A stretch of 64,000 bases of DNA. It comes from Candidatus Eiseniibacteriota bacterium (GTDB lineage Bacteria > Eisenbacteria > RBG-16-71-46). Both the position numbers and the translations under genes were made by a program. Within the stretch, counting starts at the first letter, position 1. Each line of letters opens with the position of its first letter. Location: assembly GCA_016215625.1 (NCBI GenBank), contig JACRIW010000047.1, positions 6,281 through 70,280 on the forward strand, written 5' to 3'. The notes under the pieces were generated by a model that saw only the letters and a program-made list of their open reading frames with translations, was not told the DNA's origin and did not search any database. Below, piece by piece: positions 4,431-56,590 of this stretch.

Positions 4431-4822
4431 GCGGGCAGGTCCCAGTTGAACACGTACGAATGCCGGCCGGCCTCGATCACGATCTCGAGCGTGCCCGTGA
4501 GTCCGGCGAGCGCGCCGGTGCCCGAATCGGGCACGACCGTGATGCGCAGCGACGGCGTGCCCCGCTCCATGACGCCGGTGTGCTGCAGCACGAACGAACC
4601 TTCGCGGCCCTCGAGCGTGCCGGTGACGCGCTCGATCGCGGAGTACGCCGCCGAGCCCTTCACGAGCGTCGTCGCCGAGATCATCGTGCCGATCGCGTCC
4701 GCCTCGAGCGCGCCGTGATAGCGCTTCTCGAGCGCGAGCCGCGCGAGCGTCACGCCGCCCTCGGCGGGGTCGCTCTCCTGCGGCGTCATCTTCACGTCGA
4801 ACGGTCCGGTGCTGCGGTTCAT
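4427..4822 (-). CDS. DUF3224-like small protein
   Basis: Start MNRSTGPFDVKM with GAGGAGG RBS. Stop overlaps next gene start (ATGA). Confidence 0.6.
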   Translation of the reverse strand: MNRSTGPFDVKMTPQESDPAEGGVTLARLALEKRYHGALEADAIGTMISATTLVKGSAAYSAIERVTGTLEGREGSFVLQHTGVMERGTPSLRITVVPDSGTGALAGLTGTLEIVIEAGRHSYVFNWDLPA

Positions 4823-4850
4823 CGAGCCTCCTCGTTGCGGAACGCGGCGT

Positions 4851-5648
4851 TCATTCGGCGTCCCGGGTGTCACGCACGGCGGGCGGCGCCGCGTTCTCGA
4901 GCGTGCGCAGCACTTCGAGCGAGCGCAGTCCCTGGAAGCGCTGGAAGTGCATCCGCAGGAAGTCGTCCACCACGCGGAACAGTTCGCCCGCTCGCGGCAG
5001 CTCGACGTACTCGCCGGCGTCCGCCACGGGCCGCGACAGGATGAGCGAGAACGAAGCGAGTGCGTCCGGCGACAGCACGATCACGCCGCCTTCACGCCCC
5101 GCGCAGCCGTCGCACAGCAGGCCGCCGCGTGCGGGCGAGAACACGCGCCGCGCGGAAACCGGCCGGCCGTCCACCGCGCACGCGTCGAGACGCGGCCGGT
5201 AGCCCAGCTCGCTCGCGAGCTGGAGCTGGAACGCGAGCGTGACGGCCGCGAGCGTGCCGACCGGCGCCTTCGCACAGCCGGCGAGCGTGGCGATGAGCAG
5301 CGCGTACAGTTCGCCGTGCGGCTCCTCACCCCAGACGAGCCGGTCCACCAGTTCGAGCGACGCCTGCGCGTGCGCCAGACGCGTGATGTCGGTGAGCCGA
5401 GAGCCGAGCGGATCGAGGACTTCCGCCTGGCTCAGCAGGTGCAGGTCTCGATCGGGCTTCTGGTAGAACACGAATCGCGATCGCGACAGCGGCTCGAGCG
5501 CGAACCCGAATCGCGAGGGAGTCTTGCGCGCGCCCTTGGCGACGAACCGCCGGAGCCCGTAATCCCGGGTGTACGCGGCGACGATGCGGCTCGTGTCGCC
5601 CAGCGCGTGCACCTTGAGGACGATGCCCTCGGTGGAAACGATCGCCAT
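4851..5648 (-). CDS. recO: DNA repair protein RecO
   Basis: MAIVSTEGIVLKVHALGDTSRIVAAYTRDYGLRRFVAKGARK..LLCDGCAG matches the RecO N-terminal OB fold and C-terminal Zn motif. The long upstream extension of the track ORF is non-coding/antisense. Confidence 0.85.
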   Translation of the reverse strand: MAIVSTEGIVLKVHALGDTSRIVAAYTRDYGLRRFVAKGARKTPSRFGFALEPLSRSRFVFYQKPDRDLHLLSQAEVLDPLGSRLTDITRLAHAQASLELVDRLVWGEEPHGELYALLIATLAGCAKAPVGTLAAVTLAFQLQLASELGYRPRLDACAVDGRPVSARRVFSPARGGLLCDGCAGREGGVIVLSPDALASFSLILSRPVADAGEYVELPRAGELFRVVDDFLRMHFQRFQGLRSLEVLRTLENAAPPAVRDTRDAE

Positions 5649-5653
5649 GCGGG

Positions 5654-6238
5654 TCAGCGCGCCCGCGCGGCGGGCTTCTTCTTCGCGGGTGCGGCCTTCT
5701 GCTTCGCCGCGGGCTTCTTCTTCGCGACGGCCTTCTGCTTCGCCGGCGCCTTCTTCGCGGCCGCGGCCTTCTTCTTCGCCGGCATCTTCTTGTTCCCGCC
5801 GAGGCGCGCTTCGTGCTGCGCGATCGCGTCCTCCACGGTCACGCTCGCGACGAGCCTCGCGACCGCGGGCTGCAGCAGCGCCTCGAGCGTCCGGAAGCGG
5901 ATGCACGAGCCGCCCATGTCGAGCTTCACGCCGGCGTCGCGGTACGCCTTCACGAACGCCTCCCGCACGCCGGGCTGCACGTACGCGCCCATGCTGTAGA
6001 GCGCGTAGTTGTGCTTCTGCGCCGCGAGCGCGAGCACCGCGTAGGGCTGGCCGTTGTACGTCACGGGCAGCCGGGCGGGCGGCACGATCCACGCGATCAT
6101 GCCGTACTGCATGACCTCGGCGAATCCCTTCGGCAGGTGCGCGTTCACGAGCTCGCGCACGGCCGAGAGTACGGCACGGCGATCGGCGGGCAGTTCCTTC
6201 AGGTATTGCGCGACGGACGTGGCCTTGCTGCTCACCAT
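5654..6238 (-). CDS. DUF1801 (YdhG-like) domain protein with C-terminal Lys/Ala-rich histone-H1-like tail
   Basis: N-terminal MVSSKATSVAQYLKELPADRRAVLSAVRELV... is typical DUF1801. C-terminus KKMPAKKKAAAAKKAPAKQKAVAKKKPAAKQKAAPAKKKPAARAR. Confidence 0.65.
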   Translation of the reverse strand: MVSSKATSVAQYLKELPADRRAVLSAVRELVNAHLPKGFAEVMQYGMIAWIVPPARLPVTYNGQPYAVLALAAQKHNYALYSMGAYVQPGVREAFVKAYRDAGVKLDMGGSCIRFRTLEALLQPAVARLVASVTVEDAIAQHEARLGGNKKMPAKKKAAAAKKAPAKQKAVAKKKPAAKQKAAPAKKKPAARAR

Positions 6239-6269
6239 GATGAGCCTCCGAGGAATCGAACGAGGTGCG

Positions 6270-6926
6270 TCAGGCGTCGGAGCTTTCGACCGGTACGGGA
6301 ACGCCGGGCTGCACGACGCCGCCCGAGACGACGACCTTGAGTCCCTCCTCGACGGACCAGTCGAGGTAGATGAGATCGGCCTTGGGCGCGTAGTGCACGA
6401 ATCCCGACGCGGGGTTCGGGGTGTGCGGAATGAACACGCACGCCACGTCCGCGCCGAGCCGTTTCTTGATGTCGTCGCTCACGTGCCCGGTCACGAATCC
6501 GATGCGCCACATGTTCGGCTGCGGCCACTGCACGAGCACGACCTTGCGGAAGGCCTGCTCCTCCTTCTGCGTGAGGAACGCCTCGCCGAGCGACTTGGTC
6601 GAGCCGTACACGAGCCCGACACCGGGAATGCGCGTGAGCGCCTTGTCCCACAGCCGTGCGATCGGCCCCTGCCCCGCGAGCGACGCGAGGAAGCCGACGA
6701 TCACGAGCAGCGTGAGCGTCGCGAGCAGCCCGAGCCCGGGAATGCGGTGGTAGTCGAGCGCCTCGAAGCGCAGGTAGCGCCCGAGCAGGTTGTCGACCCA
6801 GTTGAGCAGGCGATAGAAGACGAAAAGCGTCACCGCCGTCGGTGCGAGCACGAGCAGGCCGGTGAGCAGGTAGTTGCGAAGCCGGCCGAGCGGACCGACG
6901 GGACCCTTGGGGCGAGATGGCGTCAT
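6270..6926 (-). CDS. DUF502-family membrane protein
   Basis: Two N-terminal TM helices, then conserved FRKVVLVQWP...GFVTG...VFIPHTPNP motif block. Confidence 0.65.
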   Translation of the reverse strand: MTPSRPKGPVGPLGRLRNYLLTGLLVLAPTAVTLFVFYRLLNWVDNLLGRYLRFEALDYHRIPGLGLLATLTLLVIVGFLASLAGQGPIARLWDKALTRIPGVGLVYGSTKSLGEAFLTQKEEQAFRKVVLVQWPQPNMWRIGFVTGHVSDDIKKRLGADVACVFIPHTPNPASGFVHYAPKADLIYLDWSVEEGLKVVVSGGVVQPGVPVPVESSDA

Positions 6927-7023
6927 GGGGGAAGCGAGGCTCCGGGGTGCGTGCTTGGGATTCCGCGCGCACTCTATCGCGGCGCGCCCCGGCGTGCGAC
7001 CGCTCGGGCGAGGCGCCGGCCTA

Positions 7024-7629
7024 TCAGCGCCGCAGTCGTTCCGGCAAGGGCTGGATCGTCGCGTCGGGCTCGCGCAGTTTCCGCAGGCGGCGAGCGGCGT
7101 CCGGGTACGCGCTCATCCCGGAGGCGAGTACGGCACGGAGCGAATCGGCGCGCGTCGAGATGTCGAACGACGTTCCCGTACCGAGTCCCATGCCGGCCCA
7201 GCCGTCGAGCAGGTTCACGCGCCAGAAAGCCCTCACCTCGCCGTGCGAGAAGGTCGAGACGCGCACCACCCAGGGGTCGCGTCCGTCGGTGCGGTCGAGC
7301 ACGGGCTCGGGCGACATCCGCGCCTTCCACTGCCAGCCCTCCGGCAGCAGCGCGTCGGCGAAGCGGCGCACCCACGCGGCGCCGTTCGATCCGAAGGCGA
7401 GGATCTCCGCCGAGCCGAGCGAATGCCGGGTGCCGTCCGGGGCGACGTGCACGTCCTCGCTCGTCGCGACTTCGAGCATGACGGTGGCGCTGTCGCACGC
7501 GAGCAGCAGCGCGCGGGCGTCGGCCGCACTCCGGATCTCGAGCGGCGCACGCTCACCCGCGACGGCAGGCGCCGCGGGGACGAGCACGAACGAAGCGACG
7601 AGCACAACCACTCGAAGCAGACGGCGCAT
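7024..7629 (-). CDS. Hypothetical secreted protein
   Basis: Signal peptide MRRLLRVVVLVASFVLVPAAPAVA. No recognisable domain. Confidence 0.5.
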   Translation of the reverse strand: MRRLLRVVVLVASFVLVPAAPAVAGERAPLEIRSAADARALLLACDSATVMLEVATSEDVHVAPDGTRHSLGSAEILAFGSNGAAWVRRFADALLPEGWQWKARMSPEPVLDRTDGRDPWVVRVSTFSHGEVRAFWRVNLLDGWAGMGLGTGTSFDISTRADSLRAVLASGMSAYPDAARRLRKLREPDATIQPLPERLRR

Positions 7630-7683
7630 GCACGCCCTCCTCTCATGCTCCCGGTCGTTCGAGTCTCCCGGCCCGCCCGAACG

Positions 7684-8649
7684 CTATTTCAGCTTGAACT
7701 CCACCGGAACGGCGACCCACACGGCCACGGGCTTCTGCTCGCGCGTGGCGGGACGGAACTCCCACTGCCGCACGGCCACGAGCGCCGGCGCGTCGAGGCC
7801 GTTGACGCTCTTGTCGAGCTTCATGTCCTTGACCTTGCCGTCCTTGCCGACGAGCGCCTGCACGATCACGGTGCCCTCGAGTCCCGCGGCGCGCGCGGCC
7901 TCGGGATACGCGGGCGTCACCTTCTTGACGGGCACGGGCAGCGAATCCACGCGCACGTACTCGCCGAACTTCGGCAGCGGCTCGCCCCCGCCGGCGGCCA
8001 GCACCGCGGCGCGGCGCGCGGCGCGGAAGTTCGCGATCACCGTGTCGGCGGGCAGCGCCTCGCGCATCATGCCGAGCAGCGTGTCGGCCTTCTCGTCGAT
8101 CCAGAAGCCGCCGGGAATGCGGCCGCCGACACCGGCGAAGCCGCACCCTTCGAAGAAGTTCAGGTACGTCTGGCCCCGGCTCTTGCTCGAGAACCAGATC
8201 ACCGTGGTCATCCACGGCTGCGGTCCACCGTCCTGCTGCACGGGCGGCGGGCACAGCTGGTCCGACAGGTTGGTCGAAGTCGTCACGAGCGCGTTGGTGA
8301 AGCGCGTCATCCAGCTCTTGCCCACGCGCACCATGCCGAGCCGCTCGGTGTAGGGGAACTTCGTCTTCTCGCCCTTGGCGTCCACGGTGTCGCGCCAGAC
8401 CACCGCGACGCGGCCGACCTGGATCGAGTCCGCGGCCTGCATCGAGGCGAGCAGCGCCTCGACCGGCAGGTGACGAGGGGCGTCGGGCGGCACCGGCGCG
8501 CCGGGAGGCGGCCCCGACATGGGCGGCGTCGCGGACGAGGGGTTCTGCGGCTGGGCGGGTGCGGAACCGGCGGGCGGAAACGACAGCGCGGCGCTCGTGG
8601 CGAGCACGAGCAGCAGCGACGTGGTGGTGACGAGGACGGCGGGCTTCAT
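7684..8649 (-). CDS. TonB C-terminal-domain protein (energy transducer TonB family) with extra central domain
   Basis: N-terminal TM plus Pro-rich stretch. C-terminal YPEAARAAGLEGTVIVQALVGKDGKVKDMKL..NGLDAPALVAVRQWEFRPA matches TonB_C. Confidence 0.7.
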   Translation of the reverse strand: MKPAVLVTTTSLLLVLATSAALSFPPAGSAPAQPQNPSSATPPMSGPPPGAPVPPDAPRHLPVEALLASMQAADSIQVGRVAVVWRDTVDAKGEKTKFPYTERLGMVRVGKSWMTRFTNALVTTSTNLSDQLCPPPVQQDGGPQPWMTTVIWFSSKSRGQTYLNFFEGCGFAGVGGRIPGGFWIDEKADTLLGMMREALPADTVIANFRAARRAAVLAAGGGEPLPKFGEYVRVDSLPVPVKKVTPAYPEAARAAGLEGTVIVQALVGKDGKVKDMKLDKSVNGLDAPALVAVRQWEFRPATREQKPVAVWVAVPVEFKLK

Positions 8650-8735
8650 CGGAGCCTCCGGCGAATGGAAAGGAAGCGGGAAGTCACGACGAACCGTACG
8701 CCGTCATCCGTCGGGGGCACAACGGTCCGGACGGA

Positions 8736-9356
8736 TCAGTGCCCCTTCCGGGCGCGAGACTTGGCAACGACCGGACGCCGGGAGGGCGATTTCGCACGGC
8801 GGGCGGGTCCTGCGGGCTTCGCCGGGCGCGCGGGCCGGGTTGCGCGCGGCGCCGGCGTCGTGCGCGATGGCTTCGGCCACGCCTTCTCGAGCGCCGCGAT
8901 CGCCGCGGCGCCTTCGCTCATCGCGGCGTCCTCGTACGCGCGCATCACGCGCCGTTCGGCCGCCTTCATGTGATCGTGGCCGCACAGGTGGAGCGCGCCG
9001 TGAATCACCAGCCGAGCGAGTTCCTCGCCCTCGCTCACCTTCCAGCGCTTCGCCTGCACGCGCACGCGGTCCATCGAGACCACGAGGTCGCCTGTGACCG
9101 CCCGCGTGTCCGCGTCGGCCTCGTGCTCGTCGTACGCGAACGTGATCACGTCGGTCGCGTGATCCATGCCCCGCCAGTCGCGGTTGAGCGCACGCGTGGT
9201 CGCGTCGTCCGCGAGCACGACCGCGATCTCGCCGGTGCGGCGGCCGAGGCGCCGCAGGACGAGCGTCACGAGCGCGCGCAATGGCGCGCGCAGGCGCGCG
9301 GCGAGAGCGCGGCGCATGAAAAGTGGTGTCAAGACGATGGACATGGGCGGCATCAT
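8736..9356 (-). CDS. ybeY: rRNA maturation endoribonuclease YbeY with ~55-aa basic Pro/Ala/Arg-rich C-terminal tail
   Basis: Zinc motif HGALHLCGHDH and upstream DVITFAYDE. Tail PSRTTPAPRATRPARPAKPAGPARRAKSPSRRPVVAKSRARKGH. True start may be the internal Met (MRRALAARL). Confidence 0.8.
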   Translation of the reverse strand: MMPPMSIVLTPLFMRRALAARLRAPLRALVTLVLRRLGRRTGEIAVVLADDATTRALNRDWRGMDHATDVITFAYDEHEADADTRAVTGDLVVSMDRVRVQAKRWKVSEGEELARLVIHGALHLCGHDHMKAAERRVMRAYEDAAMSEGAAAIAALEKAWPKPSRTTPAPRATRPARPAKPAGPARRAKSPSRRPVVAKSRARKGH

Positions 9357-9397
9357 CGACGGAGGACGTCACTCACGCAATGCGACGGTGACGAACT

Positions 9398-11776
9398 TCA
9401 CCACGGATGACCGAGAAGCACGAAACTCGCCCAATAGACCGGATGCCGGTACGGTTGCCGGCCGTTCGAGTCGTGCCAATCGCGCACGGCGATGCGCGCT
9501 CGTTGCAGTGCTCGCACGGGCGTCGCCGCACGAACACCGGGTGCGAGCAACTCGGCGTAGAAGTGGTCAACCAGCAGTGCGGTCGCTCGGTCGTCCGCGT
9601 TCCAGAGACTCGCCACGACACAATGTGCGCCGGCATGCTGCATCGCGGTCGCGTGGCCGTTCAGCCCGTCGCCTCGCATGTCGCGCATGCCCATCGACTG
9701 GCAGGTCGCCAGAACGGCCAACCGGGCACTCAACCGCCATGACTCGAGTTCATCGATCGTCAGGCGACCGTCCGTGGAGTCGAAGCGAGCCGCCGCACGT
9801 TTGCTGACGGCGTTCGCCTCTGCCAGGACGATTGCCGCATCGCCCGAAAAGGCGAGGTCGTGCTTGTGGTGTGTCGCGAAGTGCACGAGGTCGAACTGTG
9901 CGAGCCGCCCGTCGCGAGCCAGCTCGCGCATACGGGCTTCACTCGCCGCCGCGCCGCGCAGCAGGAGCGCGCGCGGAAGCCGGGCGTGGAGCAAGCTCAG
10001 TTCGGTGCCAGCCTCGAGCAGCGGGATATCGCCGGGGGTCGGCCGCACCGGCCGGGGCGCGCCGACGAGCAGCGCGTTCGTCCCCCAGGCTCTGGCTCGC
10101 GGAGGGGAATCGAGATCGTGTGCGAGCAACAGCGCCGAGGGCACGTAGCCGATCGCGAACCGGTCAGAAAGCCAGCGCCCGTCCGGCCCCTTCGCGATTT
10201 CGAGCGGCAGCGCGTTGTTCACGGATGAAGACAGAACGAGCAGGTCGCGAACTCCCACCAGTTCAGGTTCGAACGGTGCGATGCGCAGTCGCCACAACAC
10301 GGTCGCCATCGAGTCGAGATCCGGAGTGGGCTCCACTCCGACGGGCCAGGCCGCCGATGCACGCAGCGAGTTGCGGAACTCGGACGTCCACAGATCGGCC
10401 CACTCGGGCGAATCCGGAGCGGGGTCGTCGAAGCGCACCCAGCGGACCGGCGCGCCACGACGGAGCACGAACCCGAAGAACGGATAGCGCAGATGGGAAG
10501 AAGGGCGGGATTCGAGCCAGCCGATGAGCGCGGTGGATTCTGGCAACGAGTTCCCCAGCCGACCGCCGAGTCCAGTCCACACCGAGTCACTCGCGAGGGC
10601 GGCAGGATCGAAGCGACGTTCCAGCGTGCCGCGTGCGACGGATCGCTGCAGGGTCTCGAAAGCACTCGTCGAATCGCCGAGTTGGAGCATCGCGAAAGCA
10701 CAATCCGCCCACGCCGCAATCGGAGCCACGAGCGATCGCCCCTGGTCCGGCCTCATCCTCGAATGACGCCTCTCCTGAACTTCTGCCGCGCGTCGCAGCA
10801 GGACGCGGGCTTCGACGAGTTGACCTCGCCTCGCGAGCAGGGTGCCGAGGGAGTGAAGCGCCATCGGAAGCGCAGGCCGCATCGTGTCGGCGGCGCCGTC
10901 CATGAGTCGAATCGCCTCCCGATAGTGAGCGATCGCCTCGTCGTCGTCGCCGAATCGAACGCAGGACACGCCCCAATCCGCCAGCACCTCGGCCGCCGTG
11001 AGGCTCGAATCGCCTTCCGCGCGGCGCGCGATCGCAAGCGCCTCGCGAAACAGGGCGTAGCACTTCTCCCGCTTGTTCATCTGCCGGTGGACATTCGCGA
11101 AGTCGAGCACCACCCGCCCCAGCTCCCGGGAGTTGGGGTCGCATACGCGCCTCGCGACGCGCTCGGCGCGTTCGAAATAGCCGAATGCGGTCTCGCGCGA
11201 ATATCCCGACAGCTTCCAGTCTCGTCCGAGCTGATCATTGCTTTCCGCGACCCAGGGCGAAACCTCGCCGAATGCGCGGCGGCGACATGCCAGGGCCAGT
11301 TCGTCCCACACGCGCGCTGCTGCGGCATCACCGAGCGCACATTCGACTCGCGCGAGCGCGGAACGCGTGGCTGCGACATCGGGGTGCTCCTCGCCGAGCA
11401 AGCGCGAGCGGGACGCCAACTGCGTGCGAAGCGCGGGCAACGTCCGGCCCCAGTTCTCTTCCGTGCGCACATCATCGGGCACCAGCGACTCGGCAAGCGC
11501 GAAAGCTCGTCGCACGCTCTCCGGTGCCGAAACGATACGCACGAGCGCGTCGCGATCGAACCGGGCTTCGGCGAGTTGCCAGCCCGCCGTGCGGGGGTCC
11601 TCGGCCAGCACTCGCTCGCGTGCACGCGCGAGGGCGAGTGCCGCTTGGAACTGCCCCGCCGCGCGGAGCCGCACGATCCGCTCCCGTGGCGGGTGCGCGG
11701 ACCGAGCCGGCATCCCGCACGCCGCCAGCGAGAGCGCGAGCGCGCAAAGAACGAGGTGCCGAGTGTCGCGCCTCAC
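9398..11776 (-). CDS. TPR-repeat plus CHAT-domain lipoprotein
   Basis: GTG start overlaps anti-sigma stop (GTGA). Lipoprotein signal VRRDTRHLVLCALALSLAACG. TPR-like helical repeats. C-terminal CHAT region (LVHFATHHKHD...LVLATCQS...ASLWNADD). Confidence 0.75.
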   Translation of the reverse strand: MRRDTRHLVLCALALSLAACGMPARSAHPPRERIVRLRAAGQFQAALALARARERVLAEDPRTAGWQLAEARFDRDALVRIVSAPESVRRAFALAESLVPDDVRTEENWGRTLPALRTQLASRSRLLGEEHPDVAATRSALARVECALGDAAAARVWDELALACRRRAFGEVSPWVAESNDQLGRDWKLSGYSRETAFGYFERAERVARRVCDPNSRELGRVVLDFANVHRQMNKREKCYALFREALAIARRAEGDSSLTAAEVLADWGVSCVRFGDDDEAIAHYREAIRLMDGAADTMRPALPMALHSLGTLLARRGQLVEARVLLRRAAEVQERRHSRMRPDQGRSLVAPIAAWADCAFAMLQLGDSTSAFETLQRSVARGTLERRFDPAALASDSVWTGLGGRLGNSLPESTALIGWLESRPSSHLRYPFFGFVLRRGAPVRWVRFDDPAPDSPEWADLWTSEFRNSLRASAAWPVGVEPTPDLDSMATVLWRLRIAPFEPELVGVRDLLVLSSSVNNALPLEIAKGPDGRWLSDRFAIGYVPSALLLAHDLDSPPRARAWGTNALLVGAPRPVRPTPGDIPLLEAGTELSLLHARLPRALLLRGAAASEARMRELARDGRLAQFDLVHFATHHKHDLAFSGDAAIVLAEANAVSKRAAARFDSTDGRLTIDELESWRLSARLAVLATCQSMGMRDMRGDGLNGHATAMQHAGAHCVVASLWNADDRATALLVDHFYAELLAPGVRAATPVRALQRARIAVRDWHDSNGRQPYRHPVYWASFVLLGHPW

Positions 11777-12537
11777 GGCATCGAACGCGCCTGTCTTAGT
11801 CGGCGCTTCGCGCGTTCGCCCACCGGTCCCACACGCAGCGACAGCTCTCCGAGCAGCGAGTCGGCCCGCGCCACCTCGCCCGTTCGCAGGCAGGCGACGT
11901 AGCGCGTCCACTCGTTTTCGCTTCGCCAGGGTTCCGGAAGCGTCGCGAAACGCACCGAACGAAGCGTCACGAGCGCCGAGTCCGGTTGATCCAGCCGAAG
12001 TTGCGCGCTCGCGAGGTAGACGCGACGCAGGATGTCGAACTCCTCGTCCGCGCTGGGCGCGGCGAGCAGATCGGCGGCACGCGCGAGCTCGCCGCGCTCG
12101 TACGCCTGCAGGCCATGAAGCACGACGCTGTCGGCACCGACCCCGGCACGAGTGGTGGCGAGATCCTCGAGGTGGATCGCGGGCAGAACGGTCGGCGGCG
12201 GTGCCTCCACCCTGCCGACCGGGCGTTCGAGCCGCGCCGCGAGCCAGGCGCCACCGAAGACTGCGAGAAAGGCCGCCGCGACGAGCACGATCCGCGGCGC
12301 GAAGAGCAGCCGGCCATCGAGCGATCGTGACCGGGCTCGCGCCGCCCCCACTGCTCCGGCGTACTCGGCCCGACCACGCTCATGCGAGCCGAACGTGGAG
12401 CGCAAGCGCTCCTCGCACTCGGCGCAGGTGCGAGCATGCTCGAACATCTCCCGGCATGCGGCGACGGGCAAGAGCCCCAAGACGAGATCGAGGCACTCGT
12501 CGTCGTCGAAGTGTCGTCTGCCCCGGTCAGGACTCAT
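11773..12537 (-). CDS. Membrane anti-sigma factor, zf-HC2 (ChrR/RsrA-like) type
   Basis: H-x3-C-x2-C motif (FEHARTCAECEERL), single TM (LLFAPRIVLVAAAFLAVFGGAWLAA). Start overlaps sigma gene end. Confidence 0.7.
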   Translation of the reverse strand: MSPDRGRRHFDDDECLDLVLGLLPVAACREMFEHARTCAECEERLRSTFGSHERGRAEYAGAVGAARARSRSLDGRLLFAPRIVLVAAAFLAVFGGAWLAARLERPVGRVEAPPPTVLPAIHLEDLATTRAGVGADSVVLHGLQAYERGELARAADLLAAPSADEEFDILRRVYLASAQLRLDQPDSALVTLRSVRFATLPEPWRSENEWTRYVACLRTGEVARADSLLGELSLRVGPVGERAKRRLRQARSMP

Positions 12538-13282
12538 GCGCCTTCCCCTCCTCCGGCGACAAGGGCTGCGCCGCGGACCAGCGTTCGAGCCCCGCCCACA
12601 ATGCCGCGAACGTCCCTGCGGGCAGGTCACGAGGCGTCAGGCCCTTTCGCCCGAGGCAGCCACGCACGGCATCCCGTGCGCGGTTCGCGACCACGTCGAC
12701 ATGAGCGGCGTTGATCGCGACCTCAGGGTGCGCCGCGATCTCACGGCTGGTCCACTCGAAAAAGGCTCGCAACAACCAGACACGACGGGCTCGAGGCGAC
12801 AGCTCGCCGACACAGTCTTCGAGCACGCTCACGAACTCCCGGGCTTCCGCCTCAGCTTCCGGTCGAGGCGAGGCCGAGACGAAATCGTGCTCCTGCAGGT
12901 TTTCCATGGATTCGATCGGTTCCGGGGACTCCCGCCGCCGAGCTCGCTGCTCGAGCAGCCGCCAGAGTCCGTTGCGCGCGACCGTCGAAAGGTATCCCGC
13001 GAGTTCGCCCGGCGCTCGCCCAGCGGTGTTCCACTCCCCGGATTCCGCGCGCAGAAGCAGTTCTAACGCCTTGCTCGACGCGAGGTCCTCGAGGTCTTCG
13101 ACCGAAACCCGCGGCGACCGGGACGCATGCAGGCGCAGATAGCGGGCGACGGCTCCCCGCAACAGGAGCCACGTCTGCGGACGCACGCCCGCTGCTCGCT
13201 CTCCGCCGGCACGCATGTCGGCAAGCAGGGCGAGCAACCGGGTCGGCCACAGAATCGTCGGAGAGAGATCGGCGGCGTTCAT
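12527..13282 (-). CDS. Sigma-70 family (ECF-like) RNA polymerase sigma factor
   Basis: Region-4-like segment RRVWLLRAFFEWTSREIAAHPEVAINAAHVDVVANRARDAVRGCL and region-2-like LSTVARNGLWRLL. First in a sigma/anti-sigma/CHAT operon. Confidence 0.6.
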   Translation of the reverse strand: MNAADLSPTILWPTRLLALLADMRAGGERAAGVRPQTWLLLRGAVARYLRLHASRSPRVSVEDLEDLASSKALELLLRAESGEWNTAGRAPGELAGYLSTVARNGLWRLLEQRARRRESPEPIESMENLQEHDFVSASPRPEAEAEAREFVSVLEDCVGELSPRARRVWLLRAFFEWTSREIAAHPEVAINAAHVDVVANRARDAVRGCLGRKGLTPRDLPAGTFAALWAGLERWSAAQPLSPEEGKAHES

Positions 13283-13464
13283 CCGGAAAAGTCTATACAG
13301 GGGCCGTCCTTCGGGAAAGCCAGCCGGCAGTTTCCCTCCGTTAGGTCGTGCCACACCGGCGGAATGAGATGTCACGAGGGCAGCGGTGCTCGCCACCTGG
13401 TTCGGGAGGTGGCGGCTGCCGGGCCGCCGATGAAACTTCCCACGTCCCGAACTCCGGAGCCTGC

Positions 13465-16400
13465 ATGCGCCCCATCCCGGCCGCCCGCCTGCTGTCCGTA
13501 CTCACAGCACTTCTCATCCTCGTACCGCGGCTCGCGAACGCGGTCGCGCTCGACTGGTGGGCGAACCGAACGTCGACTTCGTGCGTCTTCGAGTCCACCG
13601 CGCCCGGCACGATCCGGCTCGACAACTGCGCGAGCGGGTTCATCGAGGGCGACATCACGCTGCCCTCGAGCGGGAACTGGAAACTCTCGTTCGACGTGGA
13701 ACCCGACGAATCGACCGGGCGCAAGCCGAACGACTACGTCGACGTCTTCATCAACTCGGCCCGCATCGGGCGCTACTACAACACCCCCGCGGCCCCGGCA
13801 CTGCATCACGTCTCCGCGCTCGTGAACGGCTCGAGCGTGCACTACCGATTCGAGTTCCTGAGCACGGATCTCGCGACCCACATCCACATGGTCGTGCGCG
13901 CCGGACAGGCGGAACTCGAGCCTGCCTACCTCACGAACCCTTCGTTCGATGGTGGCACCTACGTCAATGCGACGCCCACGACCACAGGAGACTGGCAGGG
14001 CAATCTCGCCAGCTACGTGACCGCCGAGAACGGCGTCACTCCGTTCCAGGGCGGCCGCATGCTCAAGTTCCTGGGCACGGCCAACGGCGGCGCGAGCACG
14101 GGCGCCGGTTGTGAGGCCATCCAGTTGGTCAGCATGGCGCCCTACGCGAGCGCCGTGGCGGCCGGCATCTTCCGGCTCGAAGCGAGTGCCTACGTCAACC
14201 GCGTGGCGCTCGACTCACAGACGGACACGCAATTCGGCATCGAACTCGTAGCCTGCAGCGGCTCGATGAGCAGCTTCCCGCCGCCGGCCGCCAACCAGCT
14301 CGCGCGCGCGCGCACCCTGATCCGCACGGATGGTGACCCGGCGACATGGGAGCGCATTCCGGAGTGCCTGCTGCATGTTCCCTACGGAACGACCTACGTA
14401 GCCTACTACCTGTTCGCGGACGAAGACGTCATGAACGATGGCACCGCGCCCGAGTTCGATGGGCACTACGCCGACGGGGTCACGCTCCTGCGGGTCGCTC
14501 CGCCCGCCTGGAGCTGCGCCGATCTGGTCACGCCGGAAGGCAATGCGGGCGCCCATACGCTGACCGTGCCCGTGGCGCTCAGTGCGCCGATCTGGGCTCC
14601 CGCCTCCATCACCGCCTCGACCACCGACGGCACCGCGACCGCGGGGGACGGAGATTTCCTGCCGACGGCACAGACGCTCACGGTGAAGCCCACGCTGGCG
14701 TGGGCGCGCAAGTGGGGCTCGGTCGGTTCCGGCAACTCGCAGTTCGATCAACCCTCGGGTATCGCCGCCGATCGCTGGGGCAACATCTGGGTGGCGGACG
14801 GCAACAACCATCGGGTGGTGCGCTACACCCGCCGCAGCGATTACGCCGGCAAGTTCGGCACGAGCGGCAGCAGCCCCGGACAACTCGGCTTCGTCGTATC
14901 CGTCGCGGTCGATCCGATCTTCGGCCACGTGTATGTGGGTGGATCGGACTCACGCATTTCGGAGTTCACCGCCGACGGCACGTTCGTGCGCGAGTGGGGT
15001 TCGCCCGGCACGGGGCCGGGACAGTTCTCGACACTCAGTGGCATCGCCGTCGATTCGCAGGGCAACGTATACGCCGCCGATTGGGGCACCGGGCGTATCC
15101 AGAAGTTCTCGAGCACGGGGACCTTCCTGCTGCAGTGGGGATCGCTCGGCTCCGGGATCAGCCAACAGTCTCCCCGAGGCATCGCCATTGGCCGCCAGGA
15201 CGTCGTGTACGTGTCCGACACGTGGAACCCGCGGATCCAGCGGTAATCCTCGACGGGCGCGCCGCTCGGTCCGTTCGGCGGCTTCGGCTCCGGCCCCGGC
15301 CAGTTGAACCAACCCTGGGGCTTGTGCATCGATGCCGAGGGCAACGTGCTGGTCGCGGACCGCAGCAACAACCGCATCCAGATGTTCACGGCTTCGGGTA
15401 CCTGGCTCACGCAGTGGGGTTCGTCGGGCAGCGGCGACGGTCAGTTCAACGCTCCGATCGATGTGAGTTCGGCGCCGAACGGCGTCGTGTACGTCGTGGA
15501 GACCGGCGGGAATCGCGTGCAGTCGTTCGAACCGCGCGATCCCTCCACGAGCCTCGGACTCATCGTGTCCGGCGATGCGAGGCTCGAGAGCAACGAGAAC
15601 TTCGCGCTTTCGTTCGGCGCCCCAGCCGCGAGCGTGGCGCCCGCCGCGCCGGCGACGATCACGCTGACGAACGACGATGTCGGAGTCTTCTCCACTTCGG
15701 GTGCCTCCACCTCGCTGGTCGGTTCGGCAATGGTGAGTCCCATTGCGGATGGCCTGCGGCTGTCGAATCTGGGGCTGGCCGGAGCGGATGGGGCCGAAGT
15801 GACCGCGGGCGGCCTCAAGCTCTCGAGCACCCAGCCCGGGTCGATCGGCTTCGCCGCCGACTTCGCGAGCGCGGCCACGATTCCCGCCGGTGGCGCCAAC
15901 GTGGTCGCGCGCATGGTGGGCACCGTGGCCGGAGTCCCGCAGGCAACCATGGGCACGTACACCGTGAACCTGCTGCCGACCGGCGCCAACTCGGTCGGAG
16001 TCGACTTCTCGGGTGTCGGCGCGTCACAGTGGAACGTCGCCGTCTACAACGGCGCCACGCTCGTGCACCAGCGCACGGGACACAGTGGCGTTGGGGTGGG
16101 CTACCAGAGCTGCGGCCCCGAGCCGGGCATGCACGCGTCGGCCACCGGCGACCCGATCCCCGGCGTGGACGTCGAGATCGAGCAGGTACCGGGCGGCATC
16201 GCGGTCACGTCGCGGCCGGGCGGCTGCACCCACATCGATCTCGGTGACGGAACCGGCGTGCATGCGGGCGACCGCATCGTGTTCCGGTCGCCGTCGCCCG
16301 CCCTGCGGTCCGGCGACGGCCTCGCGGCCGTGCGGTTCACGTCGAGCCTGTCCTCGCTCGACGTGAAGAGCCTGGGCCTGCGCGTGCTGGGGGCGCTGCA

Positions 16401-17451
16401 CCGTTCGAGCGGTAACGCGCTGTTCGCGGCCAACTACAACAGCGCGAAGTCGAACACGGGGTGCATCATGAAGAACATCGGTCCGACCGGCGGTGATGGC
16501 GTGCGCATCGCCGTTCCAGAGGGCAAGAAGGCGGTGCACACCGAGTTCGGCAACACCGCGTTCCAGAGCTCGGACGCGGGCGCTTCGCTGACCGCGCGCG
16601 CGGTCGGCACCGCCAACGGCACACCGAACACGACGCTGTTCACGCTTTCGCAGACGGCCACGTCCACGGGCACCCAGCTGCGAGCGAACTTCACCGGCGC
16701 CTCGGTCGAGAGCGTGGTCGTGCTGAACGCGGGTGCGGTCGCCTATCGCGGCGAGGTGGCGAACAACGTCGTCGTGGGCGAAGAGGGCTTCCAGTCGCCC
16801 GCTCTGGGCGCGCACGAGGCGAACGGCCCGGCCCGCGTCGAAGCTGCGGGCGATCCGATTCCTGGTGTGGACATCGAGATCGAGCAAGTGCCGGGAGGCA
16901 TCTCGGCCGGTCGCTCCACGGTGCTCAACTACCGCAATCCCCGCACGTTCAACATCGGTGGCGTGCTGTACTCGGGTAACGTGATTTCATTCAAGCGCGC
17001 GTTCTCGCGCGGGTTGCACGCGCAGGTCGTGGACGACAGCACGGCGACCCTCGATGAGGTGCAGTGGATCGCCACCAACCCGGGCGCCACCACTCTCGAC
17101 AGCCTCGAGATCGTGGCCGAGACGATCGGCGCAGGCGGCACCGGGACGACGGGCGTCGGTGATTCCCCGGCACGAGTGCTGTCGGCGCTGCGAGCGTGGC
17201 CGAATCCCTCCGGGGGACGGACGGGGGTCGCGTTCACTCTCGGGTCCGCCAGCCGTGTGCGGGTCGTGATCTACGACGTCGCCGGGCGCGAGGTGCGTGA
17301 GTGGCACGCGCGGCGGTTCGAAGCGGGCGAGCATCATGTCGAATGGGACGGACTCGATGCGGGCGACCACCCGGTCGCAGCAGGCATCTACTTCGCCCGC
17401 GTCGAGGCAGGCGGAATGCGGCACGAGCTCAAGCTCGTGAGGCTTCACTGA
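13465..17451 (+). pseudogene. NHL-repeat secreted protein with T9SS-type C-terminal sorting domain, interrupted by one in-frame TAA (15244..15246)
   Basis: Track ORFs 13348..15246 and 15304..17451 are in the same frame. Signal peptide MRPIPAARLLSVLTALLILVPRLANA after a GGAG RBS. At least 5 NHL repeats span the stop (..NPRIQR*SSTGAPLGPFGGFGSGPGQLNQPWG..). C-terminus WPNPSGGRTGVAFTLGSASRVRVVIYDVAGREV...GIYFARVEAG is a Por_Secre_tail-like CTD. Confidence 0.7.
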
Positions 17452-17460
17452 GCCCCCATA

Positions 17461-17499
17461 CGAATGCGGCCGTCCCGTGCTTCGGGACGGCCGCATTCG
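17461..17499. terminator. Bidirectional intrinsic-terminator-like hairpin between convergent genes
   Basis: Perfect inverted repeat cgaatgcggccgtccc / gggacggccgcattcg around a 7-nt loop, between the NHL gene end (17451) and the HD-hydrolase gene end (17519). Confidence 0.6.
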
Positions 17500-17518
17500 T
17501 TCGCCGGAGAGGATCGGG

Positions 17519-19684
17519 CTAGGCGTCGCGTCGCGTGTCGCTCTCTCTCCCCGCGCGCTTCGGCGCGTCGGGATACGGCGCGCGCACGTGGAAGATCGCG
17601 GTGAGCACGGGAATGAACGACTCGCGGATGCGCGCCAGCTCCTGGAGCGTGAGCCCGCAGTCGTCGAGCTGCCCGTCGCGCACGCGTTCGTCGATGATGC
17701 GCTGCACGAGCCCGCGGATGCGGCTCGGCGTGGGCTCGGCGAGCGCGCGCGAGGCGCCCTCGACGCCGTCGGCCAGCATGAGGATCGCCGTCTCCTTCGA
17801 GCGCGGACGCGGACCCGGATAGCTGTAATCCTCGCGGCGCGCGCCCGGATCGGTCTCGAGCGCCTTGTGATAGAAGAACGCCATCACCATCGTGCCGTGG
17901 TGCTCGGGGATCGCGTCGAGCACGGCGCGCGGCAGGCGCTGCTTGCGCGCGAGTTCGAGGCCCTCGGTGATGTGCGACTTCACGACGAGCGCGCTCATGG
18001 ACGGCGTCAGTTTCTCGTGCCGCGAGCGCGACGAGGCCGGCTCGTTCTCGGCGTAGTACTCGGGCTTCGCGAGCTTGCCGATGTCGTGGTAGTAGGCCGC
18101 CACGCGCGCGAGCAGCGAGTTCGCGTTGATCGCCTCGGCGGCGGCTTCGGCGAGCGAGCCCACGACCATGCTGTGGTGGTACGTGCCGGGCGCCTCGAGC
18201 TGCAGGCGCCGCAGCAGCGGACGGTTCAGGTCCGACAGCTCGAGCAGCGTGATGTCGCTCGTGAGGCGGAACAGGCTCTCGACGAGCGGCAGGAACATGA
18301 ACGCCAGCATGGTCGAGAGGAAGGCGTTGAGCCCGCCCCACATGGCGTCGCGCAGCAGCACCTGGGTCGTCGCGGTCTGGGCGAGGTCCCACGCGAGGAT
18401 GGCGGCGAGGTTCGCGAGCATGATCGCGAAGAACGCGCGCACGAAGTGCCAGCGGTGGCGCAGGCGCGAGACCGAGTACGTGGCCGTGACGCCGCCCATC
18501 ATGGCGACGGGCACGAACGGCGCGCGCAGCTCGGCGACCGCGGTGACGAGCACGGCGACGACGAGCGTGAACACGAGCGCCGGTCGCTTCTCGAGCAGCG
18601 ACGCCACGACGAGCGGCGCGAGCGCGAGCGGCACCGTGAACTCCGAGAACCCGGCGACCGTCACGAGGCCGACCGCCGAGCCGAGCACGGCGAGGGTCAG
18701 CAGCGTGAACATCGCGAGCATGCCGTTGTCGCGGTAGACCGCGAGCAGCTCCATGCGCAGGTAGGTCGCGAACGCCGCGATGAACAGCAGCATGAGCAGC
18801 ATGCGCGCGACGGGCGGGTACAGGAACTCGCTCTGGTTGCTCTTCGCCAGCTCGAGGTTCCGCAGCGAGCGCAGCTTCTGCACGGCCTCGCGCGAGACGC
18901 GCTCGTTGGCGTCCACGATCAGCTCGTCCTTCTTCACCGTGCCGATCACGCCCGAGACGGCGCCCTGCGCCTGCACGCGGCGCCACTCGGTCTCGGCGCG
19001 GTCGTAGAGCACGGTCGACTGGACGAACGGCCCGGCGAGCCCCACGACGAGCTGCACGCCGCGCGGATCGTTCGGGAACAGCTCGCGCGCGCGCTGGGCG
19101 AGACGGTCGAGCGCCTCCTTGCGTTCGAGGAACCGGCTCGCCGGGGCGAGCGCCTCGGTCTCGCCTTCGCGCAGCGTGACGTTGCGGTACCCGAGGATGA
19201 AGCCGCCCTTCTTCTCGGCGACGATGCCCGACTGCACGAGTTCGGCGAGCCAGCCACCCATGGCGCCGAGCGCCTTGCGGGCACGGCCGGGCGCGGCGAG
19301 CGCGTCGGCGGCGTTCTCCTCGAGCGGCACGCCGAGCGCCTTCAGGCGCGCGACGCGCTCGGCGGGACTGACGCGGACGTCGGAGACGAGCGCGAGCGCG
19401 TGGTCCTGGAACGCGCTCCAGCGGTTCAGCACGTCGGCCTGCGCGCGCGTGTCCACGACGTAGACGGGCGGCACCGCCAGCCCGGCCTCTTCCTGCTCGC
19501 GCCGCAGCACCGGCTCGTCCTTCTGGACGCGGAAGTCGTACGGGGCGACCACGCGCTCGCGGGCGATGTCGCCCTCGCGGTAGCGCAGGCGGTCCCCGGC
19601 GCCGTGCCCCGTCGGCAGGAGCGCGGCGGCGGCCAGCAGCGTCACGACCATCAGCAGGCGCTGGGCGTAGTACCCCCAACGCAC
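17519..19684 (-). CDS. 7TM-receptor-coupled HD/HDIG phosphohydrolase (YqfF/PgpH-like)
   Basis: Seven central TM helices. HD motif YYHDIGKLAKP and ...LADGVEGASRAL. Classic partner of phoH and ybeY. Confidence 0.8.
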   Translation of the reverse strand: MRWGYYAQRLLMVVTLLAAAALLPTGHGAGDRLRYREGDIARERVVAPYDFRVQKDEPVLRREQEEAGLAVPPVYVVDTRAQADVLNRWSAFQDHALALVSDVRVSPAERVARLKALGVPLEENAADALAAPGRARKALGAMGGWLAELVQSGIVAEKKGGFILGYRNVTLREGETEALAPASRFLERKEALDRLAQRARELFPNDPRGVQLVVGLAGPFVQSTVLYDRAETEWRRVQAQGAVSGVIGTVKKDELIVDANERVSREAVQKLRSLRNLELAKSNQSEFLYPPVARMLLMLLFIAAFATYLRMELLAVYRDNGMLAMFTLLTLAVLGSAVGLVTVAGFSEFTVPLALAPLVVASLLEKRPALVFTLVVAVLVTAVAELRAPFVPVAMMGGVTATYSVSRLRHRWHFVRAFFAIMLANLAAILAWDLAQTATTQVLLRDAMWGGLNAFLSTMLAFMFLPLVESLFRLTSDITLLELSDLNRPLLRRLQLEAPGTYHHSMVVGSLAEAAAEAINANSLLARVAAYYHDIGKLAKPEYYAENEPASSRSRHEKLTPSMSALVVKSHITEGLELARKQRLPRAVLDAIPEHHGTMVMAFFYHKALETDPGARREDYSYPGPRPRSKETAILMLADGVEGASRALAEPTPSRIRGLVQRIIDERVRDGQLDDCGLTLQELARIRESFIPVLTAIFHVRAPYPDAPKRAGRESDTRRDA

Positions 19685-21373: not shown

Positions 21374-23731
21374 TCAGCGCACGACGACGAACTTCCGCAC
21401 CGCCTCGGCCCCACCGGCGCGCACGCGGCAGAAGTACGCACCCGCGCTCACGTCCCGGCCGTCGCGATCGCGCAGGTCCCACTCGAGCGACCACGCGCCG
21501 GCGTTCACGCGCGTGCGTTCGATCGAGCTCACGAGCCGGCCGTTCACGTCGAGCACGTCGAGCGACACCTCGCCCTCGCGGGCGAGCGTGAAGCGGAACG
21601 ACGCGTGCTCCCGCACCGGGTTCGGCGACACGGGCGCGAACTCGAGCGCCGGCCGGGTGGCGGCCACGCGCGAGTCCGTCGCGACCGCGGGGCGCATCGG
21701 CATGGGCGCGCTGCACACCTGCAGCGGGCGCATCATGTCGTTGTCCTCGTGATCGATGATGTGGCAGTGCCAGACGTAGCCCGGCCCGCCCGGATAGCCG
21801 AACGTGTCGGTCTCGCCGAGCGCCGCGCCGGGGTCGAACGAGAACAGGTTCACGCCCGGCTGCACCGAAACGCCCATGCGCGCGGCACGAGCCTCGGCGT
21901 CCTGCGGCGCGACGCGCACGAGCACGCGCGTCACCTCGCCCGGGTTCATCCGGAACGTGTCCTTCCAGCCGCGTTCGTTCGGATCCGGTGCGATCGGGAC
22001 GCCCTGCAGGAACGGCGTCACGTCGGGATTGCCGCCGAGCTTGAAGCCCGTCGCCGCGTCGCGCTGTCCGTAGGGGAACGGGCCACCCATGCCCGGCATG
22101 GGCATGCCGTACACGCCGAGGTAGCGTGAGGGAGAGAACGTCTGGCGCTCGAGCAGCTGGAACTGGAGCAGGTGCAGGTGCATCGGGTGCGTGTCCGCGG
22201 TGAGGTTGATGATCTCCCACACCTCGGTGTCGCCGACCTGCAGCTCTTCCGTGGGCATCATGTGGTAGTTCGTGTTGTTCACGAGGACCTGGAGCGGACC
22301 GAGCGGCCCCATGTCCTCGTTCAGCGTGAGGGCGCGACGCACCGGCACGCGCGCCGGGCGCTCGATCGGCGTGAGCCGCACGCGCGAGACGCGTGAAGGA
22401 TCGAGGCTCGCGTCCACGGGCGCGTTCGGCACCTTCGCCGCCACGCGGAACTGCATGACCTGGCCCGTCGTCTTCGGATCGGCCACCGCGCCCTTCGGGT
22501 ACGGCGAGCGTCCACTGTTCACGAGCGTGAACGTCCGGCCCGCGTACGCGGCGAAGTCGATGACGAGGTCCACGCGCTCACCGGGAGCGATGAGCAGGCG
22601 CTGGGGCGCCTTCACGGCGGGATTGTTGAGGAACACGGGCGCGTCGAGCAGGCCGCCGTCGCTGCCGATCTGCCAGAAGCCCGGCCCCGGCTTGTCCGTC
22701 GCGCGATCGAGGAGCCGCAGTTCGTAGAAGCGCGCGTTCGAGCCGTTCACGATGCGGAAGCGATAGCGCCGAGGCTCGACGTCGAGGTACGCCCACGCCT
22801 TGCCATTCACCATGACGACGTTGCCGAGGAACTCGGGAATCCAGAACGGGTGCACCGCAGGGTTCGTTCCGTTGCTCGGGAAATACAACTGGCCGTTCGT
22901 GTCGAACATGCGGTCCTGGATCGCCAGCCCGATCTCGTACGGCTTGCCGAAGCGGTCGAGCGCGGCGTCGGCCGGTCCGCCGGGCAGGTTGGCCGGCTCG
23001 AGCGACGGATCACGCAGCAGGTAGAAGCCCGCGAGCCCGGCGAACACGTTGATGCGCGTCATGCCGAGCGCATGGTCGTGATAGAACATCGCCGTGCCTT
23101 CCTGGTCGTTCGGGTAGGCGAACGTGTCGGTCACGTACGAAGGCCCGCGCTGCGCGAGGCCGGGCGTCCACCACGCGTCCGGACCGCCGTCGTACGCGGA
23201 CGGCACTTCGCCACCATGCAGGTGCACGGCCGCGGGCACCGGCCCCGTGTAGGGCGTGGTCGCGCCTTGCGTGCCGAGCGGATTCGCCCAGTGGAGCGTC
23301 TGGTCCACCGTGAGCGTGCCCTGCAGGTACAACGGCGAACCGTCGGCGTTGGCGAGCGCGTTCTCGTAGCGCACCCACGTGGGCGTGCCGCGGCGGGCGA
23401 CGATCGTCGGGCCGGGCGTGGAGCCGTTGTAGCCCCACACGAACGCGCCGTTCGACCACGGAGCCGGCAGCGTCGTGTAGAAAGACGCGGGAAGCAGCTT
23501 CTGCTGGAACTCGCTCATGCGGATCTGCAGCGGTGCACCCGCGCTGGTCGCGGCACCGTCGAGCGCGGAGGGCAGCGGAAGCGGGTCCACGTACTTCGGA
23601 ATGAGGGTCGGATCGAGCGGAACGGCCGCCTGGGCGAGCGCCCGGGCAGGAAGTGCGGCGCACAGGAATGCGAGGGCGAGCCCGAAGCGCACGAAGCACC
23701 GGAGCCGCGCGGAGAAGAACGCAGGGAACAT
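21374..23731 (-). CDS. CotA/bilirubin-oxidase-like multicopper oxidase with T9SS-type C-terminal sorting domain
   Basis: Signal peptide MFPAFFSARLRCFVRFGLALAFLCAALPARALA. Copper-site motifs HLHGGEV, HDHALGMTRINVFAGL, HPMHLHL, HCHIIDHEDNDMM. CTD PNPVREHASFRFTL...LDVLDVNGRLV...GAYFCRV. Confidence 0.85.
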   Translation of the reverse strand: MFPAFFSARLRCFVRFGLALAFLCAALPARALAQAAVPLDPTLIPKYVDPLPLPSALDGAATSAGAPLQIRMSEFQQKLLPASFYTTLPAPWSNGAFVWGYNGSTPGPTIVARRGTPTWVRYENALANADGSPLYLQGTLTVDQTLHWANPLGTQGATTPYTGPVPAAVHLHGGEVPSAYDGGPDAWWTPGLAQRGPSYVTDTFAYPNDQEGTAMFYHDHALGMTRINVFAGLAGFYLLRDPSLEPANLPGGPADAALDRFGKPYEIGLAIQDRMFDTNGQLYFPSNGTNPAVHPFWIPEFLGNVVMVNGKAWAYLDVEPRRYRFRIVNGSNARFYELRLLDRATDKPGPGFWQIGSDGGLLDAPVFLNNPAVKAPQRLLIAPGERVDLVIDFAAYAGRTFTLVNSGRSPYPKGAVADPKTTGQVMQFRVAAKVPNAPVDASLDPSRVSRVRLTPIERPARVPVRRALTLNEDMGPLGPLQVLVNNTNYHMMPTEELQVGDTEVWEIINLTADTHPMHLHLLQFQLLERQTFSPSRYLGVYGMPMPGMGGPFPYGQRDAATGFKLGGNPDVTPFLQGVPIAPDPNERGWKDTFRMNPGEVTRVLVRVAPQDAEARAARMGVSVQPGVNLFSFDPGAALGETDTFGYPGGPGYVWHCHIIDHEDNDMMRPLQVCSAPMPMRPAVATDSRVAATRPALEFAPVSPNPVREHASFRFTLAREGEVSLDVLDVNGRLVSSIERTRVNAGAWSLEWDLRDRDGRDVSAGAYFCRVRAGGAEAVRKFVVVR

Positions 23732-24330
23732 GAGAGACCACTCCACGACACCGCCCGGATCGGACGGCGCGCACCAAAGTCGCGCGTCGCGGGGAGGATG
23801 GATGCGGACGCGACTGCCGGCGGGTGCCGGCACAGGGGGGTTGGTGCGCACGAACTCGGACGTCTCTCGCGCGCCGCGGTGCAGGTGGCGGCGGGCGCGC
23901 AGAGGAGTTCAGGAGAGAGACATCGAGGACCCCGTGGCGCCGGGGCGGAGACAGGTGGGAGCCCGGGCAACTCCTCGCCGGACGGTTCCTCGACTTCATG
24001 CGCGAATCACTTGCGCGTGCCGGACGGCATGGGGCGGTCCGGGGGGTCTCACCTCCCTCGCGGCCAGCGCCCGCTGCGGTCCTCGCACGGAATGCGGGCG
24101 CGTCACCGGCATGTCTTACAGGAAACATGCCGCGGCTTCGGGAGCACTTTCGGCAAGCATGCGCGCGTTGCACCGCAACGACTCCGCAGGGGTGCTCGTG
24201 GAGTAACGAGAGCGCACTCGCGCGGGCGCGCGGGGGCGGACTGACCATTTGGCGGGTCGCGACACGAATGTGTCAGGGCGTGCAGCTCGACCGCGCCCCA
24301 CCACCTCGAAGCGCCGCGCCCGCGTTGCCG

Positions 24331-38494: not shown

Positions 38495-38512
38495 GTGTGG
38501 GATCTCCCTCGC

Positions 38513-39814: not shown

Positions 39815-39824
39815 GGCGTCCTCC

Positions 39825-44086: not shown

Positions 44087-44111
44087 GCGTGCTCCGTTCG
44101 CGGACGCGCCG

Positions 44112-45212: not shown

Positions 45213-45238
45213 GGAAGCGACTCCGTCGTGCATGGGGG

Positions 45239-56388: not shown

Positions 56389-56590
56389 GAGGACTCCCCG
56401 GAGAGGTGGAGTGGGAGGCAAGGATGTCAGGGGGCACCCGGGGCGGCACGCCGTGGACGGCGCACGGAGGGGCGGAATGCGTGTCCCTGCGGTTCAGTGG
56501 GCGAAAAGTATAACCCGGTCGCAACCTCATCGGTCGCGCGGACCGCGAGATTTTGCACATTTTCGCGGCCGGGTTCGGTCCTGCGGTCCG

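Follow-up and report, generated by a model that had tools for sequence, protein, structure and literature searches.

A single-base difference places an in-frame TAA in an NHL-propeller gene of a Candidatus Eisenbacteria metagenome assembly whose intact allele is present in an independent assembly

We analysed a gene encoding a large, predicted secreted protein with a six-blade NHL beta-propeller that is interrupted by an in-frame TAA codon in a 64,000-nucleotide stretch of DNA from a Candidatus Eiseniibacteriota bacterium (hereafter the window; positions 6,281 to 70,280 of contig JACRIW010000047.1, NCBI assembly GCA_016215625.1). The TAA is real in this assembly and comes down to one base, since a public assembly that matches it in all other positions has C where this one has A. 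Position of the stop, single-base difference and intact 1,328-residue allele were all observed directly, and on balance we favour the explanation that the TAA is a real nonsense allele that segregates in a Candidatus Eisenbacteria population and was captured by the consensus of the metagenome-assembled genome (MAG). The gene and its stop are as follows, L123 denoting the contig of the independent assembly and P0177 the protein encoded on it:

13465..17451, plus strand: NHL-propeller gene, product of 1,328 residues when the stop is counted as a sense codon; one TAA, at codon 594; intact allele P0177 on L123
15244..15246, plus strand: in-frame TAA within blade 4; base 15246 (A) is the sole difference from L123 (C, giving TAC, Tyr594)

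The local codons at 15238-15249 read CAG CGG TAA TCC. Both the upstream open reading frame (ORF; 13348/13465-15246) and the open frame that follows (15247-17451) are in frame 1 with no further stop between them, as the original prediction of two same-frame ORFs parted by this TAA alone had it, and the frame after the TAA continues to a TGA at 17449-17451. The start codon is an ATG at 13465 with GGAG 5 nt upstream. Composition is of the coding type in both halves, with a GC content at third codon positions (GC3) of 0.85 before and 0.87 after the stop in a genome of ~70% GC, and with GC1 exceeding GC2 on either side, as in real coding frames of this genome. The TAA is the only lesion in 1,328 codons, no second stop or frameshift being present.

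The evidence that a single base accounts for the interruption comes from an independent Logan assembly of sequencing run SRR12113407. Its contig L123 (10,543 bp) corresponds to positions 7225-17767 of the window except for one base: at 15246 the window has A and the Logan contig has C, the other 10,542 bases being identical. Gene content and gene order of L123 match those of the window, including an island of 8.2 kb in which the NHL gene resides. As L123 has C at 15246, the codon is TAC (Tyr) and the protein is intact; indeed, P0177 comprises 1,328 amino acids with Y at 594 and agrees with the repaired window protein wherever the two were compared by eye. P0177 was found by an exact look-up of the 90% protein cluster that holds the two NCBI halves, whereas our first homologue search returned a best match of only 42% identity, with P0177 concealed as a member of a 90% cluster. 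On the basis that L123 reads TAC, we take TAC to be the ancestral codon, and codon usage predicts the same (the NHL gene uses TAC 27 times and TAT twice for Tyr). The one-base TAC/TAT-to-TAA change originally proposed is thus what the comparison found, and an intact allele is present in what is evidently the same population.

We then located the stop with respect to the domains of the product, whose features are:

13465..13542, plus strand: putative Sec-type signal peptide MRPIPAARLLSVLTALLILVPRLANA, residues 1-26, read from the sequence
13930..14496, plus strand: N-terminal domain common to homologues P0001, P0009 and P0012, with the motifs 'ENGVTPFQG...MLKFL' and 'PEFDGHY'; without a Pfam model
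14713..15534, plus strand: six-blade NHL beta-propeller, residues 417-690 (PF01436, 113.5 bits; TRIM71 NHL, E=7e-65; blade alignment)
14713-14856, plus strand: blade 1 (this and the following blades from the blade alignment)
14857-14997, plus strand: blade 2
14998-15138, plus strand: blade 3
15139-15276, plus strand: blade 4, containing the TAA
15277-15417, plus strand: blade 5
15418-15534, plus strand: blade 6
16147..16204, plus strand: 58-nt internal repeat, copy 1, 84% identical to the copy at 16849-16906
17173..17448, plus strand: C-terminal FlgD-Ig-like domain of T9SS (type IX secretion system) type A sorting type (PF13860, TIGR04183)

The candidate signal peptide has typical n-, h- and c-regions by inspection and ends in ANA. 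Between the N-terminal domain and the propeller lies a stretch that resembles Calx-beta by eye and in the alignment with P0001; it gave no Pfam match. The propeller itself belongs to the NHL family: PF01436 matched four stretches with 113.5 bits against a cutoff of 20, and the six-blade TRIM71 NHL structure (8j72_A, 281 aa) aligned along its entire domain with E=6.8e-65, the aligned stretch spanning the stop. In the C-terminal half, the direct 58-nt repeat encodes GDPIPGVD[V/I]EIEQVPGGI and marks two modules of ~234 residues each, an internal duplication.

The stop occupies residue 594 in blade 4, in the column after the motif 'R-[IV]-x-x', where blades 1, 2, 3, 5 and 6 have Y, F, F, F and F, respectively, so that the aromatic position originally pointed out within an NHL blade is indeed the one affected. 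Of 345 blades from 40 homologues, 322 have a residue in this column, and in 315 of them it is hydrophobic (F 136, V 81, I 48, L 20, W 19, Y 9, M 2). The near-identical P0177 has the Tyr at this position, and the alignment with the homologue P0001 (E=7e-147; 42% identity over 585 aa) runs without a gap across the stop and places F opposite to it. The stop is also spanned by individual matches from Pfam, NCBIfam and PDB (SGL, residues 578-651; ScyF-NHL, residues 569-689; TRIM71 NHL). These single database matches and the gapless P0001 alignment show that the split cuts one folding unit, and judged from its sequence neither fragment could form a closed propeller.

The upstream fragment also loses the C-terminal domain (CTD), as originally stated, because the PF13860/TIGR04183 match lies downstream of the stop. 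On the basis of these observations we propose that a C-to-A change at 15246 would have turned TAC (Tyr594) into TAA in an otherwise intact accessory gene, with the deposited MAG consensus carrying this putative nonsense allele and the independent assembly of the same population the TAC allele. Translation of the TAA allele would end at codon 594, and its predicted product would be a Sec-exported fragment of ~567 residues with ~3.7 of 6 blades and without the sorting-type CTD. Such a fragment would be unable to close the propeller or to reach surface routing, which would make the TAA allele a loss-of-function allele.

The main competitor of a segregating nonsense allele is an artefact of consensus, assembly or sequencing, in which the organism has TAC alone and the A entered through a low-coverage miscall, oxidatively damaged reads or scaffold curation; we consider this possible, if rather unlikely. 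Several facts weigh in its favour and against a segregating allele. First, the independent assembly has C at 15246 and is identical at 10,542 other bases, and truncated products are on record from the NCBI MAG alone. Second, C to A is a transversion and belongs to the classic class of sequencing artefacts caused by oxidative damage (8-oxoG). Third, the alleles were compared assembly against assembly, and the MAG may have been built either from SRR12113407 or from a sister sample. Fourth, few sites stand behind an argument from haplotypes, the independent overlap with the window amounting to 14.3 kb with 4 differences in all. Only this part of the window is comparable, since no exact Logan copy of the other window proteins was found and their nearest cluster members differ by 4-6 residues.

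Conversely, short-read assemblies seldom contain substitution errors in their consensus, and with a DNA identity of no more than 74% among them the NHL blades are too divergent for repeat-induced chimerism or collapse to be likely. Furthermore, run SRR12113407 yielded another contig, L124 (3,798 bp), which departs from window positions 3444-7241 at three sites, all in recO:

5094, 5098 and 5448, within recO (4851-5648, minus strand): single-base differences between the MAG and Logan, with A, C and T, respectively, in the MAG; two synonymous, one A184G

Two of these sites are only 4 bp apart, and the two synonymous codons read CGC in Logan as against CGA or CGT in the MAG. This pattern resembles real haplotypes and fits their co-existence better than it fits independent errors, suggesting that the two assemblies followed different haplotypes of a slightly heterogeneous population. 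With TAC in L123, population heterogeneity or consensus error, which the original prediction listed together, therefore gained support, whereas a pseudogene fixed in the lineage and the read-through that it also listed did not.

In its genomic setting, the NHL gene forms part of an island between pgpH and ybeY, which has the following features:

9279..17557: island of ~8.2 kb between pgpH and ybeY, absent from the closest relatives
Within 9398-11911, minus strand: CHAT-TPR gene of the island (Pfam scan)
11773-12630, minus strand: zf-HC2-like anti-sigma gene (Pfam scan)
12527-13396, minus strand: sigma-70 region-4-like gene (Pfam scan)
17461..17499: inverted repeat of 17 bp, perfect, cgaatgcggccgtcccg/cgggacggccgcattcg, lying where the NHL gene and pgpH converge, between their stops

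The NHL gene on the plus strand is divergent from the three minus-strand genes. In three sets of Eisenbacteria relatives (L038; L039 and L040; L041 and L042) phoH, pgpH and ybeY are contiguous, with pgpH and ybeY adjacent or overlapping in L038, L039 and L041, and the phoH-pgpH segment of L038 is ~92% identical to the window at the nucleotide level. The final residues of PgpH are changed at the island junction, and the window pgpH product is 100% identical to MBI5169218.1. Neither an integrase nor a tRNA nor a flanking repeat was seen at the island. An ARAGORN call of a tRNA-Ala(GGC) at 11539-11615 (minus strand), in the region of the CHAT-TPR ORF that encodes its N-terminus, had no Rfam counterpart, not even with the threshold at E<=1; we regard it as a probable false positive within coding DNA rich in GC. 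The inverted repeat at 17461-17499 is likely a bidirectional terminator hairpin; it has no clear U-tract and was not called by a consensus scan.

Searches of 5.8 billion proteins, GTDB representative genomes and JGI metagenomes found no close copy of the gene other than the one on L123. Protein-guided scans of the GTDB genomes and JGI metagenomes returned distant NHL propellers alone (<=49% identity) and no orthologue, and a degenerate DNA pattern across the stop had 0 matches in JGI metagenome contigs. As the island is absent from relatives and close copies are lacking, the NHL gene is accessory and lineage-specific, and genes of this kind tolerate loss-of-function alleles.

Beyond mere tolerance, the nonsense allele might be kept at appreciable frequency because cells profit from losing a large NHL protein that is secreted or sits on the surface, which we regard as improbable. 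If true, the advantage could lie in escape from a phage or predator that uses the NHL protein as receptor, or in cheating on a secreted public good, and the locus would offer a case from nature in which an accessory CTD-cargo gene, carried by a recently acquired island, is currently being lost through adaptation.

Very improbable, in our view, is a fixed and decaying pseudogene, that is, a lineage that lost the gene for good with the stop as the first of accumulating lesions. The gene is accessory and sits on an island absent from relatives, and the stop destroys the fold and removes the CTD, which speaks for this reading. By contrast, the lesion is not present in all copies, since an intact allele exists in DNA that is otherwise 100% identical, no further lesion has joined it, and coding-type composition is kept on both sides of the stop.

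The NCBI record treats the two halves as genuine neighbouring genes, with MBI5169216.1 (HZA61_06985, 593 aa, a hypothetical protein) as the upstream half and the downstream half annotated as a separate coding sequence (CDS):

15322..17451, plus strand: MBI5169217.1, 709 aa, 'T9SS type A sorting domain-containing protein' (NCBI), with a TTG start and beginning 'MCIDAEGN...'

By way of a small correction to the original prediction, 25 open sense codons separate the TAA from this annotated TTG at 15322. That these are two real genes, a 593-residue hypothetical protein followed by a 709-residue T9SS-sorting-domain protein, has next to no chance of being right, separate CDS entries notwithstanding: the split interrupts blade 4 of what is one six-blade propeller, homologues are uninterrupted across the split position, and an intact 1,328-residue allele is on record. 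No orthologue was found to end at the same point, the sole near-identical copy being continuous, and at another locus (L047) an NHL propeller and a CTD are encoded in one ORF with an unrelated middle region. Moreover, the TTG lies within blade 5 without a Shine-Dalgarno match, and MBI5169217.1 lacks a signal peptide even though its CTD implies export. Because of this start codon without a Shine-Dalgarno match, the mid-blade start and the missing signal peptide, MBI5169217.1 is most plausibly a side effect of the annotation having worked around the stop, rather than a gene.

We likewise give virtually no credence to programmed read-through or TAA reassignment, by which a full-length protein would be made from the TAA allele. 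The frame does stay open and coding-like beyond the stop. However, the stop is not conserved, the near-identical copy having TAC. TAA acts as a regular stop elsewhere in the window: it ends the enoyl-CoA hydratase (ECH) gene at 28760-29536 exactly at the end of the Pfam profile and of 258-residue homologues, it closes the PhoH ORF, and internal stops were seen in 0 of the 13 other confident genes tallied. Nor was a stimulatory RNA element found, as folding of the 103-nt stretch that surrounds and follows the stop is no stronger than that of shuffled sequences (z = -0.96) and no Rfam family matched within 9000-18000. In E. coli, TAA followed by U is a strong terminator, which also counts against read-through. 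Recoding is therefore unnecessary and unsupported.

The description of the product as T9SS cargo gained partial support. The CTD scored above the cutoffs of PF13860 (FlgD_ig; 41.2 bits, cutoff 27) and of TIGR04183 ('T9SS type A sorting domain'; 29.8 bits, cutoff 23, residues 1245-1325), and below the gathering cutoff of the Pfam family Por_Secre_tail (PF18962; 18.8 bits versus 27). All invariant residues of an alignment of six CTD sequences (four window proteins together with P0009 and P0012) are kept in the NHL copy. No T9SS machinery gene, such as those for PorK/L/M/N, Sov/SprA or PorU/V, was present among the window ORFs scanned with Pfam, and T9SS has been described as limited to Bacteroidetes (review, PMC11611037); export by this route is therefore predicted here from domain similarity. 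We found no literature on Eisenbacteria with a T9SS, or on the run and accession numbers. With T9SS type A cargo of the P. gingivalis RgpB type (Bacteroidota), the product shares a C-terminal Ig-like domain of ~80-90 residues that exceeds the TIGR04183 cutoff, and its N-terminus reads as a candidate signal peptide. It differs in its host, Candidatus Eisenbacteria, and in a CTD that scores better as FlgD_ig (PF13860) than as Por_Secre_tail.

Similarly, the propeller has in common with the NHL domains of TRIM71, TRIM2/3 and Brat and with the sensor domain of PknD six blades of ~47 residues, and the hydrophobic or aromatic residue after 'R-[IV]-x-x' that characterizes six-blade NHL propellers is conserved here too. 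In the present case, the propeller is placed within a large, predicted secreted, bacterial multidomain protein.

Three more proteins of the window end in a similar CTD:

21374-23851, minus strand: multicopper-oxidase-like protein with a FlgD-Ig CTD (Pfam scan)
32991-34649, plus strand: 552-residue protein with a CTD-like end (CTD alignment); T9SS type A sorting domain protein according to NCBI
52339-56421, minus strand: 1,360-residue protein with four Calx-beta matches and a CTD-like end below both Pfam cutoffs (Pfam)

The segment 21283-24596, which contains the multicopper-oxidase-like gene, is absent from the close relative L038, which for its part contains a gene for 1,022 residues that is missing in the window. 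Proteins of the CTD type seem to sit in places that vary, with conserved genes on either side. Next to the CTD-type gene at 32991-34649 (plus strand), and divergent from it, lies another CHAT-TPR gene (29625-32744, minus strand), the second in the window, mirroring the layout of the island with CHAT next to CTD cargo.

Elsewhere in the window, a gene at 61613-62842 (minus strand) encodes a multihaem cytochrome c with weak MtrC/MtrF-like and paired-CXXCH matches. The region 37676-46000 (minus strand) contains a cluster of the 2-hydroxyacyl-CoA dehydratase type (two HGD-D-like subunits and an activase) along with enoyl-CoA hydratases, a thiolase, a short-chain dehydrogenase/FabG, a zinc alcohol dehydrogenase and a TetR regulator, and from this gene content looks like a locus for anaerobic degradation of acyl-CoA or amino acids. 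A second same-frame ORF pair, at 37676-39886, was rejected as a comparable case, as it consists of two normal genes (dehydratase and activase) with a proper ATG after the stop. In the remaining same-frame pairs, wherever a Pfam domain was found, it was not cut by the intervening stop.

The phenomenon at the NHL gene is ordinary, a private single-base variant of a deposited consensus. Nonsense single-nucleotide variants frozen into a MAG consensus as split ORFs share the same single-base change, the intact allele in another assembly and the record of two CDS, and nothing sets the present case apart from them. The finding poses no new biological question, its main value being for data quality and annotation. 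An independent assembly of the same population can settle a suspected nonsense mutation in a MAG without access to the reads. For the Eisenbacteria, MBI5169216.1 and MBI5169217.1 are halves of one 1,328-residue protein whose intact form is present in public reads, and counts of secreted or CTD-bearing proteins or of pseudogenes in their MAGs should merge both CDS.

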